Shown in pieces: positions 9,201-36,860 of a stretch of 64,000 bases of DNA. A program made the translations under genes and the position numbers. The notes beneath the pieces are model-generated. The model was not told the origin of the DNA. It ran no database searches and saw nothing but the letters and a program-made list of their open reading frames with translations. The stretch's first letter is position 1; every line of letters starts with the position of its first letter. The stretch is from Nitrosopumilaceae archaeon (lineage in GTDB: Archaea > Thermoproteota > Nitrososphaeria > Nitrososphaerales > Nitrosopumilaceae), in the NCBI GenBank assembly GCA_965214835.1, contig CBDCCK010000002.1, positions 480,001-544,000 on the forward strand, in the 5' to 3' direction.

Positions 9201-10374
9201 ATCGCCTCAACAGTGTCTGAGTCTCAACGTTGTTTCCAGAACCGCGGAATGGGGTTGCAGTTAAGCCGATTAAGATGATGCCCTTGGTAGAAATTTCCTG
9301 TTTTCTACGGTTGATGTTAAACCCCATTTTGCCCAATACTGCATTGTATGAATCAGCAATGGAGTGATGGGCCTCATCGATAACAATGCAGGAAGTCACA
9401 TCAGACAGTTGTTCGATTGTTTGGGGGTTTTTTCTAAATATTGCCATCAGAGACTGAATAGTGGATACAACTACGCTTCTTTCAGAATATTCTTCATCTA
9501 ATTTTTCAACAGATACAGGCATCTCTTTTTTGTCATTTCCCCAGTACCGGTGCAAGTGAAGAACAGTCCCACGTCGGCCTTTAGCTTGGAAAGTTGTTTT
9601 GAATGCGCTAACTGCCTGTTCACATAGTTCACGTGACTGTGCAATCCACAAAATAAATTTCGAATTTCTTTGTCGGTGATTTTTTGAAGGCTTTCCATCA
9701 TTTAGCCATTCAATCAATGTTTCAACAATCATCCTGGTTTTTCCTGAACCGGTAGGTACTGAAATTAGAATCCTTTTGTCATCAATTCTACCTTCTAACA
9801 TTTTTCTGATTTCCATGCCAGTAGAATGCTGATAGTCATACAGAGGATTGAGATCTAGTGTCGGTACAACATGTTCGTGTGGGTGAAATTCTTCACCCTT
9901 GCTATCTTTTTCTGCAACAGACGTAGGGAACCCAAGAGATATTGCTAGTTGTTTTACCCAGCTACCATTAGCAGGTAATTGTGAAATGTGTTTTATTTTG
10001 TCAGAAGATTTGTCGATATTATTAGCTTTAGTTTTGTAAAAAGATTTTGCAAGATCAATAATTTCATTTTCAGTTACCATGTTTTTTGATATGGCAGCAG
10101 TAAGAATATGCTCGAGGAAATCATGACGCTTGTATGTGTTATTTTCAATACTACGAAGGAATCTGGAACCTACACTATCATAAAGAATTTGAGCAAGTTT
10201 GTTATGATTGGAAATTTTCATGTCCTTGATTGAATAAATTTTCAAAATATTTGGGCTCATGTCAGGAATGACATTATTTTTCATTTCATCAATGGACCAT
10301 AATTCTTTGAATCGTTCAACACATTTTTCTTGTGCAGAGGTTGCCACACGAGGCTGAATTTCTTCATCTTCCAT
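6220..10374 (-). CDS. Large SF2 (DEAH) helicase with PKD-like insert, Zn ribbons and C-terminal repeats
   Basis: PTGSGKT, DEAHH, LTATP, TTGFDAP and QIIGRGLR motifs. GEYKITLEVTDNEG is PKD-like. Several CxxC pairs. Confidence 0.85.
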   Translation of the reverse strand: MEDEEIQPRVATSAQEKCVERFKELWSIDEMKNNVIPDMSPNILKIYSIKDMKISNHNKLAQILYDSVGSRFLRSIENNTYKRHDFLEHILTAAISKNMVTENEIIDLAKSFYKTKANNIDKSSDKIKHISQLPANGSWVKQLAISLGFPTSVAEKDSKGEEFHPHEHVVPTLDLNPLYDYQHSTGMEIRKMLEGRIDDKRILISVPTGSGKTRMIVETLIEWLNDGKPSKNHRQRNSKFILWIAQSRELCEQAVSAFKTTFQAKGRRGTVLHLHRYWGNDKKEMPVSVEKLDEEYSERSVVVSTIQSLMAIFRKNPQTIEQLSDVTSCIVIDEAHHSIADSYNAVLGKMGFNINRRKQEISTKGIILIGLTATPFRGSGNNVETQTLLRRYGRLYFPTIPYYEGEENFKPHALIDCQTYSTVDSDVRIIGERSYDRDGFIKDEDFRWKISKIKKFLDLYSKNVSDEKTEWTFEKERNINFPFPEEGEYKITLEVTDNEGEKSESSVYIKILPKTKETEIDDTDKQKSLYKKLIKRKVLCEVYHWILKSGSINLSTDDLNYLKKFKEFKPETIRQIGNDDIRNKRILDTIHDIKTKHKRDKILFFGCSVEHSRDIANALKILYNIEARYVDSKMGIDQRIDAIEQFRNGNVEVLCNYDVLTTGFDAPNINCVFVGRPVRSTLMYTQIIGRGLRGTKSGGTDDVLLVDIDDNFQLHESYGYSNFDKGLTELGWKVFSEYWKPWTSEQPSLKQDIPSEQNLYQHYCDSCGIVAKGMDEIKKLFEIDGVDEFIDAIESKDWPNVPSKCKSCLKLEMEPAFSSEIEPENDKATPELPENKPISADSESFEKECPRCHTKAGINEIEEIFGYLTTNGKQKPQSHCRKCRDEQLRSGATKKCPFVGYLENQNNIQDNYQMILGLYALGTQNGSLPKANMEDACNTLLKYNPDKTRSLINKNHSVFGVYYRNNLIKHIDAIDGDITFETILNPKRFEKICNEKLHDYEERQKLKEQKQKELEIQSSKKLDEHFYKLKDLAFGHVPTYSQFDQSTSSGLKTLMHRLYGGYDNYLKSKGESVLNDPKLQDTLYEEYFELYSLVKIPVTSDMLDEYGDYRVDEYIECFGSFEKFDSIVKDTISKIKNISPSVTIDDLFQDYERIKNDLGHVPHFEEMRQLSYLGMEYYLENFGTFGKFIKIYDLDPEDRYFAYKIRMDFYHLKELLQVVPNFRQLKMYSEIGHKLDEKYDESNFHEFLLDVGEVRKPFDDEDYETADKVKGNLAVKFESNIEKFGKEKAIQIFYDENVIPYTEWYYSKEGFLEIVSSDKDLIDMYKVRMQQQVTPSKNLEKRSFLGKLVTNSTVDSCPKCNSKLEKFDGGVACTNNDCGYYQST

Positions 10375-22388: not shown

Positions 22389-24220
22389 TTTCAATCCTTT
22401 CGCCTCACCTCCTTGCAGACTGTGGTTCGACGAACCCCAGAAGCTGCACTCATCCATCGTAAGAGTTTACCCCTCATCCGTATAATTTAGATTGAGCACA
22501 AGGCCAATTTTTGATCACCATCTGGATCCATATGCATCCAGATCACACCTGTATTCATTGCCTGATTCAGAGACCAAGATACTACGCGACGAGTTGGCCC
22601 GCACCATAGCCGAATTGGGCAGGAAGGACAGGATCATCGCAGACAAGGATCAGACGATAGCCATGCTTGTCGAACAGATGGCCGAGTCCTCGGTGACAAT
22701 CGTGATGCAGGCATCACAGATCAGCTGGTACAGGCAAAAGGGATCAGAGGGGGTAGCAGCATCTGAGGCGCAGACTGCCGAACTGAAAGCAGAAAACCAG
22801 CAGCTCAGACAGCACATCAAATATTACGAAAACCCGCACACCCCATCCTCGCAGAACTCGATTCCGACCAGGCAGAAAAAGACTGCTGCTGCAAAGGCAT
22901 CAGGCAACGTACCGGCATCTGCAAAGGCAAAGCCGGGCCGCAGGCAGGGACACGAGGGGATATCACACAAGAGAATGCCGACCGAATTTGTAAAGCACTG
23001 CCCCAAAAAGTGCGGCAAGTGCGGCAGCACCAACATGAAGAAGCCGAAAAAGATCTTCTCCAAGCTTGTGACCGATACCCCCAAGAGGCCCGAGCCGGTC
23101 ACGACACAGCACACCGCATACAGGCGCAAATGCGCCGACTGCGGCAACATGTGTATCGAAGACGACAGGTCATGGAACGTGCCGGGAACCGAGTTTGGAC
23201 CAAACATCACGGGGATGATGGCCGCAATACGCGTGGCACCTGCCTCCATACAGGCCACGGCCACACTGTGCTCAGAAATCCTGGGCATGGATGTCTCAGA
23301 GGCAGGCGTGCTGCAGTGCCTGAGGGCCGGCGCCAATGCGATAAAGCCCGGCGTAGAGAGCATCAGGCAGGCCATCAGGGATTCTGATTATCTGCATATT
23401 GACGAGACTGCCATGCCATACAACGGCAGGACGGCCCGCATATGGGTGGTCGTGGGCAGGAACAGGGACGGCACCGTCACCGGCGTCCACACGCTGGCCG
23501 CACCCAGTAGGGGCAGGGCCGTAGTTGACATGAACTTTCCGTATTATGACAAACCGGTCACAGTCGACGGGTACGGCGTATACGCCGCATTCAAGACCAG
23601 GCAGTGGTGCCGGATCCGCATACTCCGGGAGGCCAGGGAGGCCTGCAAGGCTTCCAGGCAGGCCCACGCGCTGTATGATACACTCAAGAAAAAGTTCATC
23701 CATGCCAAGGGGCTGGGGCCGCCGGAGGAGGAGGGCGCCGCCCGGCACGACATGCTGGTGGCAGAAACGCGCGGGCTGGCCGAGGCATTCGGCAGGGAGG
23801 CCGGATGCGAGAGCTTTGCCACAAAGCTTGGGAACGCCTCTGAATTTCTCTACACGTTCATACTGCATCCGGGTATGGAGCCCACCAACAACCTAGCCGA
23901 GCGCATGCTGAGGCCGTCCGTAATTGCGCGCAAGGTATTCCAAGGACTCCGTACCATGGAAGGCATGGAGATGTTCACCGTATTGATGACGTGCGCGATG
24001 AACTGGCGCGCCCGGGGGTGCGGCGTGAGGGAAATGCTCGTCAAGACCCTGACTGGCAGCGTCGCCTGAGGGGTAAACTCGTACCATCCATCGGTGCGCA
24101 AGGCACATGAACACAGCAGCCCGGATATCCCCATTCGACAGATGGTGCGTAAGGCACTTGTCGCGTAAGGGGCTTGATCCATTATCATGGCTGTGGCTGG
24201 GTGCTTTTATCATGTGTTTA
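22389..24220 (-). ncRNA. Orphan IS110 non-coding end (bridge-RNA-like; 22389..22458 + 24093..24220), split by IS66
   Basis: Colinear with 34453..34649, including the SD, both hairpin loops and the subterminal IR. No transposase is attached. Confidence 0.75.
22459..24084 (+). mobile_element. IS66-family (single-ORF) element; transposase at 22492..24069
   Basis: TIR GTAAGAGTTTACCCCTCA and 8-bp duplication CATCCATC. Coiled coil, Zn finger, HIDET and PTNNLAER motifs. Confidence 0.92.
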
Positions 24221-26422: not shown

Positions 26423-28937
26423 AATTTCACTTCAAGGATCAGCTAGAACGGGCCAACATAGAAAAAATCCAGAAGGAAAATAATTTTCAAAAACCGTATC
26501 CTGTTGAGCAATTCATCATGGACTTTGAGGCACTAGCGCACATCAAAGAAAAGATACCTGATTGTACAGTCAAAGGCGGAATGGCGGTGCCATTTCACGT
26601 CAAAGGCAAGGAACTGCGCAGACTAAGCGTGGATATAGACATGGTAACCAGTCACGCCAGAGAGCAAGTAGTAGCGGCCATGAAGGAGGTCAGAGATAAA
26701 CTCAGTGGCAAAATAACCATTCCGGAAAATCACATGCCGGAAAGAGAAAGAGCGGATAAACAATTACCACTGCTGACATACTATTGCAGCTATAAATCAA
26801 ACTTTCAAGAAAACGCGCAAATAAAAATAGAGATTTTTTATAACAATGCGCTTGAAATAAGGACAAAAGAGATTTCCAACTCGGAAGAAATCATAGGGTT
26901 TACAATAGACTTTCCAATCACAGTTTATGATCATGATCAGTAGTTGAAAATGTACCCCCTTTTTAAGTGTCTGAATGTTTTGAACAAGTTGACATGATTT
27001 TTTCACCAATCGAGCTATAAACAGCGGTGTTCCTGTCTACCTTGATAATGAACCAAACCCAACAGAAACACCACACAAGGTACGGTGAGGCCGGATTTAA
27101 ATTCTTGGTTACCGCAGTAGGCATGCTGAAAATCAAGTTCTCCTCAAGACACAACGCCATGTGGGGCCTGGAAGACGCCTCCCGCCTGATTGCATCCATG
27201 TCGGAGCGTTCCGCATGTGCGCACTATACCGCCCAAAAGCTTGCACTTCTTGCATCAGAAGGCGCCGGGGCCGCGGTGCCCAGCTCGGCCTGGCTTCTTG
27301 CAAAGCTGGGGCACGCAAGACTGTCCACGATGGAGAAAAGGTGCGATGCAATGCTGCATTACACGGCCGCCGAGGCGGTGGGCAGGCAGCTTTGCTCCCT
27401 CCAAAGGAGCCACAAGGCGCCTGTCCTTGCCATAGACGAGACCAAGCTGCCCAGATACGACAAGAAAACCGACATAAAGCACCTGGTAAAGTCAAAGCGC
27501 GACAGGGGCACCATCAACTATGAGCAGTACATGACATGCAAGCTGACATCCAAGGCCGGCGCCGACGTGCATACGGCCTGCCGCATGGTGACCGAGGGCG
27601 ACAAACAGGCCGATCTGGTGCGTAATATGCTCAAAAAATGCGCCGATCTGGGCATTACGCCCAGGCTCGGGTCAAGGCGCAGCATCATCCTGCTTGACAG
27701 GGGGTTCTTTTCGGTCGATGTAATGGATGCCATATCCGAACCCGGGTTTGCATTCATCATGCCCGCAGTCAAGACGCCGGGGATAAAGAGGGCCATAGTG
27801 CAGCGCGCCCGCGGCAAGAGAAAGGCAGTATCAAGGTATACCATGAGGTCGTCAGACGGCAAAGAGTTCACGTTCACGCTGGTCATCAAGAAGATCTCAA
27901 GGTCCAAGGCAAAGAACGTCTTTGACAGATACCACGTGTTTGCGACCACGGTGCGCTGCTGCAGCTATCGGCAGCTGTTCTGCCATGTGACAAGAGAGTA
28001 CCGGAACAGGTGGGGCATAGAGACCGGATACCGCTGTGCCAAGAGCGTCAGGCCGCGGACCACCAGCAGGAATCCTGTCCTGCGTGTGCTTTTGTTTTAC
28101 ATGTCGCTTGCAGTATGCAACATATGGCTGACAATGAGGGACTCGGGAGACCCAAAGACCCGCGTCATGGCGCTGCTGACTCTGATGTATGCCGTGGTTC
28201 TGTATTCGTGCTGCCTCCGTGCGCCGGATGCCGACAGGATCGGGGTGGGGCGACGGCGGCATGATCCCGGCTAGACGGATTTATGGTGTACATTTTCAAC
28301 TACTGATGATGCACTGATAGGAGACAAAATGACTACACTTGCCTTTGGTACCATAGGGATAGATCCACAAAGGGAGTCAGACGTTCCAAAACAAATCTAT
28401 GACATCAGCAATTTGGTTAACTCGACATCAGGGCAAATATCCATGTACGAAATTATCGGTGCGTTTGAAAAAATTGCAAGTGAGGAAATATCTTACTATA
28501 CAAGGGAAGCGCCATCGTTTGAACAGGTATTAGACGATCTTGTCACGTTTCCAGAAAGCCTGCTCGTCAAGGATAAAGGCAGGTTAAAGCTGAATTCATC
28601 GTATCAGGGAAGATTTTCTAAATTCATAACCGAATTGTTAGGAAATACAAAATACAGGGAATATACACATGTGTCAGATATTTTATTTTTGAAGATCATG
28701 AGCGTCCTGATACAAAAATATTTCAAAAAAGAGATGGACATAGAGAACATCAACGGTAAAATTAACGAAATAATAACTGAACGAAGCAGGATATCGAAAT
28801 TGGAAGGATCAGAAGAAACTAGGGAGCTGCATAAAATTGTTGGAAAATATGGGAAAAAATCCGAGCAGGGAAAAATTATTAAAAACATGCTTCCCGTTCA
28901 AGCATATCTATATGATCAAATATTGGAGCTTGGATAA
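26416..28937 (+). pseudogene. AbiEii/AbiGii-like nucleotidyltransferase, interrupted by an IS
   Basis: KGG...RRLSVDID motif. Removing the IS restores in-frame VYDHD-ALIGDKMTTL...KQIYD. Confidence 0.85.
26938..28305 (+). mobile_element. ISH3-family IS; transposase at about 27027..28274
   Basis: Perfect 18-bp TIR CAGTAGTTGAAAATGTAC and 5-bp duplication ATGAT. Motifs AIDET, LDRGF, YRNRWGIETGYR. Confidence 0.92.
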
Positions 28938-32289: not shown

Positions 32290-32916
32290 TTATTTCTTTA
32301 AATCCCAAACACTTTTCTTTTCTAGTAATTCTTGAATAAACTCCACGATTTCTTTTACCTCTTTTGCATATTCGGGATAAATATCAAATGCCAACCATTC
32401 AGAAATTATGGAATAAACATATTTAGTCATTCGACCATATTGTGCTAGATACAATAGTCCAGCTACTGGAAGTTTAACATACCATAATTCTTTAAAATTT
32501 AACATTCTGCTATTTGATTTGGATGAATGTCTTCTAAGCCATTTTGAGATTTCGTTAATTAATTCCTTATTTGATTCGGAATCGTTATCTTGGTTCTTTG
32601 CAATTAAAACAGTAAATCTAACAGAATCCAAAGGAATTATTGTAGAAAATCCATTAATTTCCAAGTAACATATAGCTGCAAGTAAGCCGGTTCTTTTATT
32701 TCCATCATAGAACGGATGCATTCTAATAATTCCTTCCATTAGACTAGCTGCTTGCTTGAAGATATTGTCATATGGCATCAACGAACCGATTTGTTGAGTT
32801 GGTCTATCTGCAATAGATGAAAGTAACCCTTTATCTTTCACACCTCGAAATACATTAAAATGCTCCTCAACAATAGTGTGAAGTTGTAACAAATCTTCTT
32901 GGGATAACTGTTTCAT
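32290..32916 (-). CDS. Fic/Doc-family toxin
   Basis: HPFYDGNKRTG motif. Confidence 0.9.
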   Translation of the reverse strand: MKQLSQEDLLQLHTIVEEHFNVFRGVKDKGLLSSIADRPTQQIGSLMPYDNIFKQAASLMEGIIRMHPFYDGNKRTGLLAAICYLEINGFSTIIPLDSVRFTVLIAKNQDNDSESNKELINEISKWLRRHSSKSNSRMLNFKELWYVKLPVAGLLYLAQYGRMTKYVYSIISEWLAFDIYPEYAKEVKEIVEFIQELLEKKSVWDLKK

Positions 32917-33105: not shown

Positions 33106-33198
33106 GTGCGAGTTTACCCCTCAGGCGACAAGGCTGGCCGGAACCTTCATGATCGTGCCTATTACGCCGTATTCCTCGAGATGGGGTAAACTTATGCA
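33106..33198. mobile_element. IS66-derived miniature remnant
   Basis: GTGCGAGTTTACCCCTCAGGCGAC matches the IS66 right end. Degenerate second TIR GGGGTAAACT. Confidence 0.55.
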
Positions 33199-33379
33199 GC
33201 TGTGATATGGGAGACACTTAAAAATGGGGTGCATTTTCATCCATGATAAAAACCCCGGCCGGTAACACGGCGACGTTCCTTGCTTCTTCTGATCCGTGCC
33301 TAGTAGGTCGGGCCGTGCTTTATAACTAACGCTAGCAACACGCACGGATCATTGGGCAGGTGGCGGGGCAGAGGCGATC

Positions 33380-34459
33380 CTACGCCGTCGTCCCGGCCAG
33401 CTCAGTTACCCTCTTGATCTTCTTGTTGTACAAGGCATTGTTACATGATGAGTACGGAGTCTTTGTCATCAACATGTGCCAGATTATCCTAAGCATCTTG
33501 GTTGCAGCGTGGGTTATCGCTATGACATGGCTGTTGCCGTTCCTTCTGCGAACCCTCTCGTAGAACTCCTTCATCCTGTCGTCGTACTGTACGGCGACGT
33601 TGGCTATCTGGGTCATCACCCAGTTGATCCTGCGGTTTGCATCCTTTTTCATGTGACCGTGATACTCGCGGTCCCCCGACTGGTATACCCTTGGACACAG
33701 GCCGGCCCAGGACACAAGATGGCTCGGTGATGGAAACCTGGCTATGTCGCCGACCTCTGCTAGCAACAGCATTGCTGCAAAGGCCTCTATCCCAGTCATG
33801 CTCATCAGTATCTTGGCATACTCGCTGAGTCCTGCCTGTCTTCCTATGTCCTTCTCTGCCTGATCTATCTCCTTTGTGACAGATGCAATCCTCCTAGTGC
33901 AACTTGCCAGTATTCTGTTGTCGTTTGGCATGTCCAGCTCTGTCTCGGAAAGCTTTTGTATGGCCTTCCTAGAGTACATTGTGGATGCGTCTATGATTAT
34001 ATCGTACTTGTCAAGCAGGCTGTGTAGCCCGTTTATGACTGCGGTTCTGTCCTGTACAAGACGTATCCTGTACCTCATCAGCTCCCTGACATCCCTCAGG
34101 TCTGCAGGAGCTACGTAGCAGCGCGGTATCATTCCCGCCCTGAGTGTGTTGGCTATCTTCCTTGCATCTATGGGATCAGTCTTTGCGCTGGTCTCCGATA
34201 TTATCTTCATCTTGAGTGTGTTTGCCAGCAGTATGGGTATGTGATGATCCTCAAACGCCCTGAATGTCTTTAGCCACATGTTGCCCGTTGACTCGCATGC
34301 GGCCTGGCATTTCTTGTACTTTTTTTTCAGCCGGACAGCAAGCTTTGCTGCCTCCTTGTACGTGTTGTCATACGAGCCCTCCTTAAGCACGTGTCCCTTG
34401 GCGTCTACAACGCACACTGCACATCTTCTTTTTCCAATGTCTATTCCTATGCTTTTCAA
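33380..34459 (-). CDS. IS110 recombinase (DEDD RuvC-like + Tnp20)
   Basis: GIDIG, CESTG, KTDPIDA and GLCP...QSG motifs. Likely TTG start at 34459 after GGAGGTGA. Confidence 0.92.
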   Translation of the reverse strand: MKSIGIDIGKRRCAVCVVDAKGHVLKEGSYDNTYKEAAKLAVRLKKKYKKCQAACESTGNMWLKTFRAFEDHHIPILLANTLKMKIISETSAKTDPIDARKIANTLRAGMIPRCYVAPADLRDVRELMRYRIRLVQDRTAVINGLHSLLDKYDIIIDASTMYSRKAIQKLSETELDMPNDNRILASCTRRIASVTKEIDQAEKDIGRQAGLSEYAKILMSMTGIEAFAAMLLLAEVGDIARFPSPSHLVSWAGLCPRVYQSGDREYHGHMKKDANRRINWVMTQIANVAVQYDDRMKEFYERVRRRNGNSHVIAITHAATKMLRIIWHMLMTKTPYSSCNNALYNKKIKRVTELAGTTA

Positions 34460-34499
34460 TCCTTTTGTTTCACCTCCTTTCAGATTATGGTTTGATAGA

Positions 34500-34640
34500 T
34501 CAGAAGCTGCATTCATCCATCAGTGCGCGAAGCACAGGAACACAGCAGCTCGGATATCCCCATTCAACTACGAGTGCGCGAAGCACATGAAAATGAAGGG
34601 GTTGATCCATCACCCTGACTACGGCGGGGGTGTTTTTATC
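34500..34640 (-). ncRNA. Putative bridge RNA with target-binding and donor-binding loops
   Basis: Two stems, each with an internal loop and a GTGC-N5-GCAC cap. The four loop strands match the element's target and donor. Transcript ends are unknown. Confidence 0.85.
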
Positions 34641-34703
34641 ATGTGTTCAACTACTGATTCACTATCAATCCTTAAAACACACCCTAATGTATTTTGGGTA
34701 TCA

Positions 34704-36860
34704 ATGTCGAATTCCAAGGAATCCAATCATGGCAATGAATTTCTTTTTGCGAAAGTTAAGGAAGAGGTTTCTACACGAGAAAAAAGCAAGCCTTCTCCAC
34801 ATAAACCTAAATCGTTTGAAGTCGACTTTGATCCAAGCTTAACTGATATTGAGAGTATAGGTGTCGAACAGCAAGTTAGAGAAACTGCAGCGTTTCTAGA
34901 AAAGAAAACAATTAGAGATGATGACGAAGTTTTTTACAACATTTATCCAAAATATGAAATTTCCCAGCCAAATGTAAAATATCTATTAGAAAGGTTAGGC
35001 GCACAAATCGTTGCTTATACTGATAGAAAAAATAATGGATTTTTACTTGCGGCTTCAAGACAAAGATTACAAAAATTAAGTGAAAAACCAACTAAATACT
35101 TGACCAATACTCTGAGAATAATAAAACCACTTAAACCTGGTGAACAAATCAGCAACACTCTAAGAAAAAACAAAGAAACACAAATGGCAGTATTGTCAAT
35201 AATTCCTAATCTGGAATCAGATAAAAATTTTAATTATATGGGCAAAATGATAACGTTTCTAGCAAATAACAACTGTAAATTATATGGGTTAGATTTACAA
35301 AAATACGGATTTGTTTTTGCTGATGTGACTCTTTACATAGTAAATAAATTAGTGGACGAATCTACATTCATTTTTCATATTAGTGAAGTTCCAGACGCCA
35401 TAGCACATGAGATCCGAAATTCAGAACATAAAAAAACAAAATTAGAAAAAACCAACTCTAATAATCTTAAAAATAAATTTCTTCCAACTGTTGTCTTAAT
35501 GGATAGTGGCGTTAATCCAATTTCTTCATTAGGAAAAGTGTTGATATCTCGTGATGCTTATTTATTCCAAAACTTTGATGATGAACATAGGAATCTTGGT
35601 CATGGAACTCCTATTGCTCATCTGATGGCGTATGGAGAAAATGACAAGGAACCCACTGTGAATATCATTTCTTACAAAATTTGGTCTGATGAACAGAAAA
35701 AATGGGCTTTTACAGGAATGATCAATGGAATTGAAAAATATCATAAAGAAACTCGATTTTTTGTAAGCTCCATCGGCATTCCTTTTTTACCTTTACATCA
35801 AATTGTTGTCTTGGAAAAATTAGTTCAGGAAAAAAACATTTGCCTAGTTGTTAGTGGAGGGAATATTCAACTGTCTGACATCAAAGCATGCCTTGAAAGT
35901 GGTGCTCAGTATCCCGATTATCTGAAATCTTTCCCTGTAATTCCTCCTGCTAATGGTGTGAACATCGTCTCCATAGGTTCACTGGCAAAAAAAGTAAGTA
36001 CCAAATACACGTCCCTAGCTGACTCAAATTCAATATCTCCTCACTCTAGGTGCGGCTCGGGTGCTGTCGAACTACACGATTGTAAAAAACCTGAATTAGT
36101 TGAACATGGAGGAAACATAAATGTCGATAATTCGTTTAACCTAAACTCTGAAGATGTCGGTGTGTCTTCTTTTGACAAGGATGATAATTTTGTTACTTCT
36201 CTTTCTGGGAGTAGTTTTTCATCGCCTTTGTTTGCTAGAAGATTGGCACAGATAGAACAGCGATATAGATCAAGGATCACTAACATTGAAACATTTCTTG
36301 CAATTAGCTATCTTACAAGTACCAAAAATAATGATTCTTGTTGGGGTTATGGGGAGCCAACGACCATTGTCGGATGTGATAAAAACTCTGCAATTTATTT
36401 AGCTGAGGGAAAGCTGGGTTTTACAAACACTGATGAGCAATCTATTAGAACCCCTCACAACGACATTGTGTTTTACGTTCCTCCTAGAGTAGATGAAATC
36501 CAACTTTGTATAGTACATTCTGATGATTTTAAGAAAGCAACAATTCCAACTTTGGAAACTTTTTTGGACGTTAAAACATACAAGCTTGGAAACAACAAAC
36601 TAATTCGCCCTCAAAATCGCAGCAATCTTGACTCAAAAACGAATGTTAAGATTCTTACCTACAAATTTGATTCAAAGAGCATGGAATCGATCTGGACTTT
36701 TAAAATAAGACCACGATTGGTAAACGATGTCTTAACAGAAGATAAAAGAAAAATCAACGTTAGGTACGGATGTGCAATTCTATTGAAAGGAAAGTTAGCC
36801 AGGCAGTCAAAAAAATCCCTCACCCAAGAGGTGATTGAGAATAGGGAGAAATATATGTGA
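34704..36860 (+). CDS. S8 (subtilisin-like) serine protease
   Basis: MDSG, HGT, SGGN, KKPEL and GSSFSSP motifs. The true start is probably MSNSKES at 34704. Confidence 0.85.
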   Translation: MSNSKESNHGNEFLFAKVKEEVSTREKSKPSPHKPKSFEVDFDPSLTDIESIGVEQQVRETAAFLEKKTIRDDDEVFYNIYPKYEISQPNVKYLLERLGAQIVAYTDRKNNGFLLAASRQRLQKLSEKPTKYLTNTLRIIKPLKPGEQISNTLRKNKETQMAVLSIIPNLESDKNFNYMGKMITFLANNNCKLYGLDLQKYGFVFADVTLYIVNKLVDESTFIFHISEVPDAIAHEIRNSEHKKTKLEKTNSNNLKNKFLPTVVLMDSGVNPISSLGKVLISRDAYLFQNFDDEHRNLGHGTPIAHLMAYGENDKEPTVNIISYKIWSDEQKKWAFTGMINGIEKYHKETRFFVSSIGIPFLPLHQIVVLEKLVQEKNICLVVSGGNIQLSDIKACLESGAQYPDYLKSFPVIPPANGVNIVSIGSLAKKVSTKYTSLADSNSISPHSRCGSGAVELHDCKKPELVEHGGNINVDNSFNLNSEDVGVSSFDKDDNFVTSLSGSSFSSPLFARRLAQIEQRYRSRITNIETFLAISYLTSTKNNDSCWGYGEPTTIVGCDKNSAIYLAEGKLGFTNTDEQSIRTPHNDIVFYVPPRVDEIQLCIVHSDDFKKATIPTLETFLDVKTYKLGNNKLIRPQNRSNLDSKTNVKILTYKFDSKSMESIWTFKIRPRLVNDVLTEDKRKINVRYGCAILLKGKLARQSKKSLTQEVIENREKYM

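Follow-up and report, generated by a model that had tools for sequence, protein, structure and literature searches.

An IS110/IS1111-family element inserted in an ISH3-like terminal repeat

The stretch of DNA analyzed here (hereafter the window) comprises 64,000 nucleotides of a Nitrosopumilaceae archaeon genome, designated G000 (contig CBDCCK010000002.1 of assembly GCA_965214835.1, positions 480,001 to 544,000), and its minus strand carries, between positions 33240 and 34649, a 1,410-bp insertion sequence (IS) of the IS110/IS1111 family, counted with a single core copy at 34648-34649 (Table 1). A prediction made earlier from the letters of this stretch alone had described this locus as an archaeal IS110 element with a bridge RNA programmed against the terminal repeat of another IS. 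The assignment of the host to the Thaumarchaeota is supported by the presence in the genome of an archaeal amoA gene, as expected for a Nitrosopumilaceae ammonia oxidizer. Throughout the text, sense refers to the strand of the recombinase gene, that is, to the minus strand of the window.

The junctions of the element were set by comparison with paralogs having other flanks, with which homology spans 33238 to 34651, and the junction strings reported in the original prediction at 33231-33245 and 34641-34656 lie exactly at those positions. The 4-nt junction overlap, TTCA, read in that prediction was upheld for its TG part (CA on the plus strand, 33238-33239), which constitutes the core, and not for the remaining two nucleotides, which are a coincidence: the overlap reads TGAA in sense, AA being by chance the next two bases of this target. 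Only TG is common to both junctions in three sister lineages of the element (B, C and D), and it is found at both junctions in 22 of the 24 elements that we tabulated, exceptions having been noted at the 3' junction (mini_639k, TA) and none at the 5' junction. Site-specific insertion without target duplication and a dinucleotide core at both junctions are features of IS110/IS1111 elements, and the element shares them. Furthermore, the terminal extensions outside the subterminal inverted repeats are asymmetric, measuring 6/2 with a 12-bp repeat and 7/3 if the repeat is taken as 11 bp.

Table 1. Features of the element, its putative bridge RNA, its target and related loci in the window.
Feature	Position	Strand	Basis or remark
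IS110/IS1111-family IS	33240-34649	-	Paralog homology and junction comparison
Right-end subterminal inverted repeat, 12 bp	33242-33253	-	2 nt from core; perfect inverse of 34632-34643
Left-end subterminal inverted repeat, 12 bp	34632-34643	-	4 nt from core
Outer 7-nt tip of ISH3-like terminal repeat (sense 5' flank)	34650-34656	.	Sequence comparison
Inner 28 nt of orphan ISH3-like left terminal repeat (sense 3' flank)	33212-33239	.	Core at last two bases
Recombinase gene, 359 amino acids (aa)	33380-34459	-	TTG start 10 nt after GGAGGTGA
Putative bridge RNA, structured core	34494-34611	-	Fold and covariation
Target loop 5' guide TTCATTTTCA	34588-34597	-	Complementary to sense strand of core and 3' flank
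Target loop 3' guide GTAGTTGAA	34563-34571	-	Equals 5 nt of 5' flank, core TG, AA
Donor loop 5' guide TGTGTTCC	34537-34544	-	Complementary to left-end start
Donor loop 3' guide ATGGATGAA	34512-34520	-	Equals last 5 nt of right end, core TG, first 2 nt of left end (circle junction)
Conserved right-end blocks	33286-33336	-	TATA-like TTATAAAG at 33318-33325, preceded by GCTAGCGTTAG; TAGGCACGGATCAGAAG at 33286-33302
Intact ISH3-like IS, 1,368 bp	26938-28305	+	Transposase 27027-28274; both 21-bp repeats carry an unoccupied 13-nt target
Second, truncated bridge-RNA copy, lineage-D-like guides	24053-24192	-	Model match at G000 504075-504172

The encoded recombinase matches the Pfam families PF01548 (E 9e-30) and PF02371 (E 3e-24), corresponding to the RuvC-like DEDD domain and the C-terminal Tnp domain, and exceeds the cut-off of the NCBIfam model NF033542 (IS110 family RNA-guided transposase) with 234 bits against 140, in agreement with the predicted family. 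Its only relatives among solved structures in the PDB are the ISCro4 and IS621 recombinases. The catalytic residues D7, E56, D95, D98 and S261, located in the motifs GIDIG, CESTG, KTDPIDA and YQSG, line up with those of ISCro4 and are predicted to be equivalent to D11, E60, D102, D105 and S241 of IS621, and GLCPRVYQSG at residues 253-262 conforms to the GL-P----S(t)G motif typical of IS1111. These motifs are conserved in a full-length alignment with six homologues, and intact homologues are present in four other genomes (G010, G004, G030 and G003); identity to the recombinases of related elements amounts to 49% (G004) and 61% (G010). The mechanical listing of open reading frames extends this frame from 33380 to 34516, and homologues in other genomes begin at the equivalent of the TTG at 34459.

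The uninterrupted 359-aa frame, with all catalytic motifs, bears out the description of the recombinase as apparently intact, and the window copy is the only one in the genome with an uninterrupted match to residues 1-359. The eight other aligned full-length copies (contig C2 of G000, at 677614, 1098259, 1519221, 1835891, 1942412, 2128807, 2178170 and 2580234) have in common an extra G at element position 633, outside any homopolymer, and the resulting +1 frameshift at codon 148 splits their recombinase gene. Lineage-B copies are ~98% identical to one another, and the frameshifted lineage is the most numerous.

A putative bridge RNA with two guide-bearing loops in the left end

The 190-nt left end, upstream of the gene and on the recombinase strand, is predicted to encode a bridge RNA in which an outer 9-bp helix (P1; 34603-34611 pairing with 34494-34502) encloses a target-binding loop (stem 34598-34601/34558-34561, hairpin 34574-34586) and a donor-binding loop (stem 34545-34550/34505-34510, hairpin 34523-34535), both capped by an identical hairpin with a 4-bp stem (GTGC-TTCGC-GCAC). 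The predicted fold has a free energy of -55.8 kcal/mol (z -2.69), with 2 of 200 shuffles equally good. Across 18 sequences from four genomes, 27 pairs account for 486 cells, 96.9% of which are paired as compared with 26-53% when the partners are slid, figures that overstate independence insofar as the sequences are kin. Compensatory, two-sided changes affect six pairs, the U-G/G-U alternations are workable only in a minus-strand transcript, and RNAalifold returns the same helices.

A covariance model built from the 18 RNAs matches 25 places in G000 and finds matches in 12 of the 151 sampled genomes of the order, G000 included; no Rfam (release 15) family matches the bridge-RNA region at E values up to 10, the three chance matches lying far below gathering scores. 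The folding and covariance-model check suggested in the original prediction thus recovered the two-loop structure, with helices supported across the 18 sequences, and the order target loop, donor loop and coding sequence on the transposase strand was confirmed by fold and covariation. As read from sequence and covariation, the region would specify a non-coding RNA with target- and donor-complementary loops, as expected of the superfamily.

The first loop holds TTCATTTTCA and GTAGTTGAA and the second holds TGTGTTCC and ATGGATGAA; within each loop, the 5' guide complements the sense (top) strand and the 3' guide complements the bottom strand. All four guide strings were found exactly where they had been predicted (34563-34571, 34588-34595, 34512-34520 and 34538-34544), and so were their matches, 9/9 and 8/8 for the target and 9/9 and 7/7 for the donor. 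Exact, core-spanning matches as long as those of the two target guides (9 and 8 nt) turned up together once in 5,000 dinucleotide shuffles of 34465-34640 and never among 5,000 random genome windows. The same strict rule credits the donor pair with 9 and 5 nt, a result equalled by 33 of 5,000 shuffles and 21 of 5,000 windows; this control is weaker because the 7-nt donor-left match ends one base short of the full core. The 3' target guide closes with AA in all 24 tabulated elements, its flank part being variable, and in 20 of them the element itself also begins with these two bases after the core; by analogy, it appears handshake-like, resembling the handshake guides of IS621.

Guides and flanks change together among relatives of the element

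Relatives of the element in G000 comprise eight full-length copies at ~85% identity and one nearly full copy, as well as one fragmented copy, two or three copies at ~65% identity and at least six miniature elements of ~370 bp (minis), which consist of both ends and the two-loop RNA and have no gene. The scaffold and the donor loop are constant across copies, and the target loop is lineage-specific and tracks the flanks. Lineage B has the guides ...GTTATGCA and CCTGTTGAA and lies between ...CCTGT and TGCATAAC; lineage C has the guide ACTTCTGAA and a guide with the complement TGGGAAGACA, and lies between ACTTC and TGGGAAGAC. Guides and flanks likewise change together in lineage D, a mini, and in the elements of G004 and G010, and a switch within the G004 genome (GTCG versus TTTG) affects guide and flank alike. 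The donor 3' guide, in turn, changes in step with the right end, for which three states are seen (ATGGA, ATAGA and ATAGG).

To quantify this relationship, 10 representatives of distinct guide sets were drawn from the 24 tabulated elements for an all-against-all matrix. The 14 rows left out were mostly lineage-B and G004 duplicates, together with the poorly matching mini_3124k, and the set keeps two representatives whose 3' flank fails entirely. In the resulting 10 x 10 matrix, cognate guide/flank pairs match at 86 of 110 positions, as compared with non-cognate means of 1.7/5 and 1.9/6 (~36%), and none of 100,000 permutations reached 86. Guides therefore co-vary with flanks in other genomic copies, the outcome that the original prediction had named as its check. 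A search of genome contigs for relatives returned one locus, L001. It is a truncated copy that matches L008 of G002 exactly, and its 5' flank is one base off the guide, adjacent to the core, so that it adds little.

Several copies fit their guides at one flank (C2 of G000 at 1517779, 2665849 [3' end], 640361 and 2950242, and L012), the other flank being unrelated or of another lineage, and in one lineage-B copy the 5' flank is B-type and the 3' flank ISH3-type. Such half-fitting copies could stem from recombination between copies or from events akin to the 'half-match' events described for IS621 in two 2026 bioRxiv preprints.

The target lies at the termini of an ISH3-like element

Once rejoined, the flanks of the element were found to be 33/35 identical to the inverted sequence 26938-26972, corroborating the claim that they represent the inverted left end of the ISH3-like IS at 26938-28305. 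The further claim that both terminal repeats of this IS are unoccupied perfect targets also proved correct, the 13-mer being intact at 26940 and 28291. The 13-nt target has 23 further occurrences in the genome, all in ISH3-like terminal repeats (12 left-end-type and 11 right-end-type). Elements of the ISH3 family are ~1.2-1.5 kb long, with terminal inverted repeats and 4-5-bp target duplications. The ISH3-like IS has seven copies of exactly 1,368 bp with at least 99% identity and 21-bp terminal repeats, six of them with a 5-bp target duplication, and its size, repeats and duplication fall within the values of the family. The best NCBIfam match of its transposase is NF033541 (ISH3), at 111 bits and below the cut-off of 225, and the protein also matches PF01609.

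The occupied ISH3-like end is a 35-bp orphan remnant and not part of a live copy. Its 28-nt stretch at 33212-33239 matches nine ISH3-like ends elsewhere at 92.9%, and left of 33212 there is no ISH3-like body, the sequence found on that side being a different transposable element of the miniature inverted-repeat type (MITE), along with repeat fragments. We considered that the orphan end might be part of an ISH3-derived MITE and rejected this option, as no partner end was found and the surroundings are a mosaic of repeat pieces. The MITE at 33106-33196, which lies between the orphan end and other repeat fragments, has terminal repeats GTRMGAGTTTACCCC... and ~7-bp target duplications, with 49 BLAST matches, 30 of them near full length.

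The insertion cuts the ISH3-like terminal repeat 7 nt from its tip and, by analogy with IS4321/IS5075, should disable that end. The targets of the other lineages are also located at repeat ends: the terminal repeat of a ~100-bp MITE with 61 free sites for lineage C, the outer ends of several repeat families with 13 free sites for lineage B, and another repeat end with 21 pattern matches, 4 of them occupied, for lineage D.

Proposed mechanism and alternative explanations

Taken together, these data indicate that the segment 33240-34649 is very probably an autonomous DEDD/Ser IS110/IS1111 element with a bridge (seek) RNA written for the tip of an ISH3-like repeat. By analogy with IS621 and ISEc11, the element would leave as a circle in which the right end is joined to the left end through a single TG. 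In the target loop, the 5' guide would pair with the sense strand of the core and 3' flank, and the 3' guide with the antisense strand of the 5' flank and core, followed by the two handshake-like bases that match the left end; the donor loop guides would pair in the same manner with the joined right and left ends. A tetramer of RNA-loaded recombinase would then hold the circle junction and the 13-nt site together and exchange strands at the TG core, without duplication. The target loop of the window copy fits the 13 nt at the very tip of the ISH3-like terminal repeat, and the sister lineages, with the same donor loop and other target guides, are each directed at the end of another repeat family. 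As in the original prediction, we infer that the element may behave as a 'hyperparasite' of ISH3-like ends.

Several observations weigh against this interpretation. The sequences in the covariation matrix are related to each other and partly hand-chosen, and the fit of guides to flanks is uneven: the window copy alone in lineage A matches at both flanks (A_1519k and A_1302k match 2/7 and 3/7 on the 3' side), no position (0/7) fits on the 3' side in C_2665k, mini_639k and G010_L012, and both flanks fit poorly in mini_3124k. At the second core base the donor 5' guide has a mismatch, and the effect of the handshake-like AA is unclear in this lineage, as it would pair with the cognate target too, donor and target sharing these two bases; in IS621, according to published descriptions, exchange is blocked by a guide whose pairing is confined to its cognate DNA. 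None of the 23 perfect targets is occupied. Among the sequencing runs searched, no RNA run contained the locus. Contigs of four runs bridge both junctions without differences and show neither an empty-site joint nor a right-end/left-end joint in the parts covered, and a search of the assembly for the circle junction yielded a single hit, in unrelated coding-like sequence. Transcription, assembly of an RNA-protein complex, circle formation and present-day activity are steps that we infer.

Some of these observations would also be expected if the element were a fossil, with a decodable RNA and gene in a copy no longer mobile and a family in decay. The vacancy of all 23 perfect targets, the +1 frameshift at codon 148 in all eight other aligned full-length copies, the many fragments and chimeric flanks and the contigs devoid of circle or empty-site joints are in line with this explanation. 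In contrast, the window copy has retained an uninterrupted 359-aa frame with all catalytic motifs, perfect guides, a perfect pair of 12-bp subterminal repeats and intact helices, and the 98% identity of lineage-B copies implies recent spread. We therefore regard a fossil as possible and rather doubtful.

Two further explanations dispense with RNA guidance altogether. The left-end structure might be a 5' untranslated region or a recombinase-binding element, the protein itself picking the ISH3-like repeat and the guide matches being incidental; the single-sequence fold, only moderately better than shuffles, leaves room for this idea. It is nonetheless very improbable, given that the guides shift with the flanks in at least six specificities against a constant protein-binding scaffold, that the lineage A and B recombinases are ~80-88% identical and yet reside in unrelated targets, and that the family mechanism has been demonstrated experimentally in bacteria. 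Alternatively, the identity of flank and loop could result from the left end copying flanking DNA, as a target-derived duplication, and the 3' target guide does literally equal the 5' flank plus the first element bases. The other guide, however, reads as the reverse complement of the flank on the opposite side, both guides occupy fixed spots in a conserved loop 60-85 nt inside the element, in a layout repeated for the donor, and the 23 unoccupied targets show that the sequence pre-exists at ISH3-like ends, all of which makes copying scarcely credible and the least probable of these explanations.

Right end, miniature elements and genomic surroundings

The right-end blocks (Table 1) are conserved in 11 of 11 aligned right ends, encompassing lineages A, B and C, the minis, G010 and G004, the second block being divergent in the G004 row. 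Complementarity to bridge-RNA bases 34498-34506 is seen in the final 10 nt of the TAGGCACGGATCAGAAG block, and GGATCAGAAG in the right-end block has CUUCUGAUC as its complement, in the outer helix (3' side); G004 differs on both sides of this complementarity, with one compensating change, and G010 has one mismatch. The TATA-like box and the block could possibly form an outward promoter that reads across the circle junction into the bridge RNA, a hypothesis based on sequence conservation. A search for structured RNA in the 148-nt right end, as found in IS1111, gave a fold no better than shuffles (z -0.08).

The ~370-bp minis are located on C2 of G000 at 639989-640361, 2139577-2139945, 2955618-2955988 and 3124156-3124522, with 5' ends alone at 10108 and 655669. 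Target guides vary from one mini to the next, and mini 2955k matches its own flanks; no full-length copy with its guides was found in the genome. In the truncated bridge-RNA copy at 24053-24192, a MITE interrupts the donor loop exactly after ATGGATG of the 3' guide, and an interruption at that same donor-loop position is seen in a lineage-C copy (G000 685686). Placement of this MITE by an RNA-guided event at the donor-like sequence was considered and rejected in view of the ordinary terminal repeats and ~7-bp target duplications of its family.

The element is adjoined by a Fic/DOC-family gene (32290-32916, minus strand) and a subtilase (Peptidase_S8) gene (~34707-36860, plus strand), and a long plus-strand open reading frame listed from 34278 merely passes through it. 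Both subterminal repeats contain an outward-facing TTTTTATC, which could serve as a TATA box toward the Fic/DOC and subtilase neighbors. With 3.2 Mb, the genome itself is roughly double the length seen in most family members sampled (1.1-1.8 Mb, with 4.3 Mb in one congener), and several IS and MITE families populate it densely, with further IS110-family genes (~30% identity) among them.

A broader and more tentative reading of the family is that the sole intact recombinase serves a guild of ~24 bridge-RNA partners (at least eight frameshifted full-length copies and at least six minis), which would combine a common donor loop and common ends with target loops of their own, in at least five specificities, all aimed at the termini of other transposable elements, and in which the outward right-end promoter would fire across the circle junction. 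The half-fitting copies and the minis with their own guides would fit such mobilization in trans by the one intact recombinase, a scenario that we consider possible and less probable than not. If true, the guild would amount to a three-tier parasitic network of transposon ends, RNA-guided IS and guide-carrying satellites in a mesophilic archaeon.

Significance and comparison with known systems

RNA guidance in IS110/IS1111 elements, natural reprogramming, the targeting of mobile elements, archaeal presence and satellite minis are already published, and the comparisons made here draw on published sources on these elements (PMC11208160, PMC11208158, PMC13626964, PMC12288879, PMC13604230, PMC11187229 and bioRxiv 2024.06.21.599552). 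One survey counts 662 archaeal IS110/IS1111 recombinases. No work on Nitrosopumilaceae or thaumarchaeal bridge RNA was found in the literature searched; the predicted RNAs and targets of ISfinder elements, archaeal ones among them, that Durrant et al. and Siddiquee et al. tabulate in their supplements may already cover relatives. The locus reveals no new mechanism and constitutes a fully decodable archaeal member of the family. Within a single 3.2-Mb genome, it belongs to a natural reprogramming series in which a constant scaffold and donor loop are combined with four to six target-guide forms whose intact targets are present, providing material for testing the guide rules of an IS1111-type geometry with upstream RNA and for studying how a promoter of archaeal type takes the place of the bacterial junction promoter. 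It might also offer a basis for a compact RNA-guided recombinase in ammonia-oxidizing archaea, which are without genetic tools, and it suggests that targeting the ends of other mobile elements, as a safe-harbor or hyperparasitic strategy, is used in archaea too.

The element resembles E. coli IS621, as known from published descriptions, in its DEDD and Ser recombinase, in the location of the RNA upstream of the gene in the left end, and in the order of its loops, target first and donor second. Common to both are loops that would each read the two DNA strands, the readings overlapping at a dinucleotide core, as well as a pair of handshake bases after the 3' guide and insertion without target duplication. 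In contrast with IS621, the strand order inside the loops is reversed, with the 5' guide pairing with the top strand, the core is TG rather than CT, the subterminal repeats measure 12 bp rather than 2-3 bp, the two loops have identical hairpins, and the recombinase is distant (E 9e-9, over the C-terminal part only). The likeness to IS621 asserted in the original prediction consequently holds for the order of the loops and fails for the order of the guides within them, which is that of IS1111 elements and their seekRNAs; the reversed order and the 12-bp repeat also place the element outside an IS110 group defined on IS621.

The IS1111 seekRNA elements (ISEc11, ISPa11 and ISKpn4), as described by Siddiquee et al. 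2024, share with the element subterminal repeats of 11-13 bp with asymmetric extensions (7/3 or 6/3), the GL-P----SG motif, a top-strand match located 5' of the bottom-strand match, and an apparent 4-bp duplication that is really element sequence. They differ in that their RNA lies downstream, rather than upstream, of the gene, in a recombinase of 330-350 aa as compared with 359 aa, and in the archaeal host of the element described here. The long downstream non-coding region of IS1111 elements has no counterpart here, the 140 nt downstream of the gene folding no better than shuffles. Siddiquee et al. 2024 mention only a few IS1111 members with an upstream non-coding region, such as ISMtsp17, and on its sequence features we file the element as IS1111-type with an upstream bridge RNA.

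Insertion within another mobile element is likewise known for IS4321/IS5075 (terminal repeats of the Tn21 family), IS1383 (inverted repeats of IS1384) and ISEc21 (transposase genes of the IS3 family). These elements are bacterial and have other targets, whereas here at least four sister lineages within one genome are each directed at the terminus of a separate repeat family. Finally, the minis recall MITEPpu9 of ISPpu9 in Pseudomonas putida, described as a recombinase-less miniature with the IS ends and a small-RNA gene for which mobilization in trans has been proposed; unlike MITEPpu9, the ~370-bp minis hold a complete two-loop bridge RNA with diverse target guides of their own.

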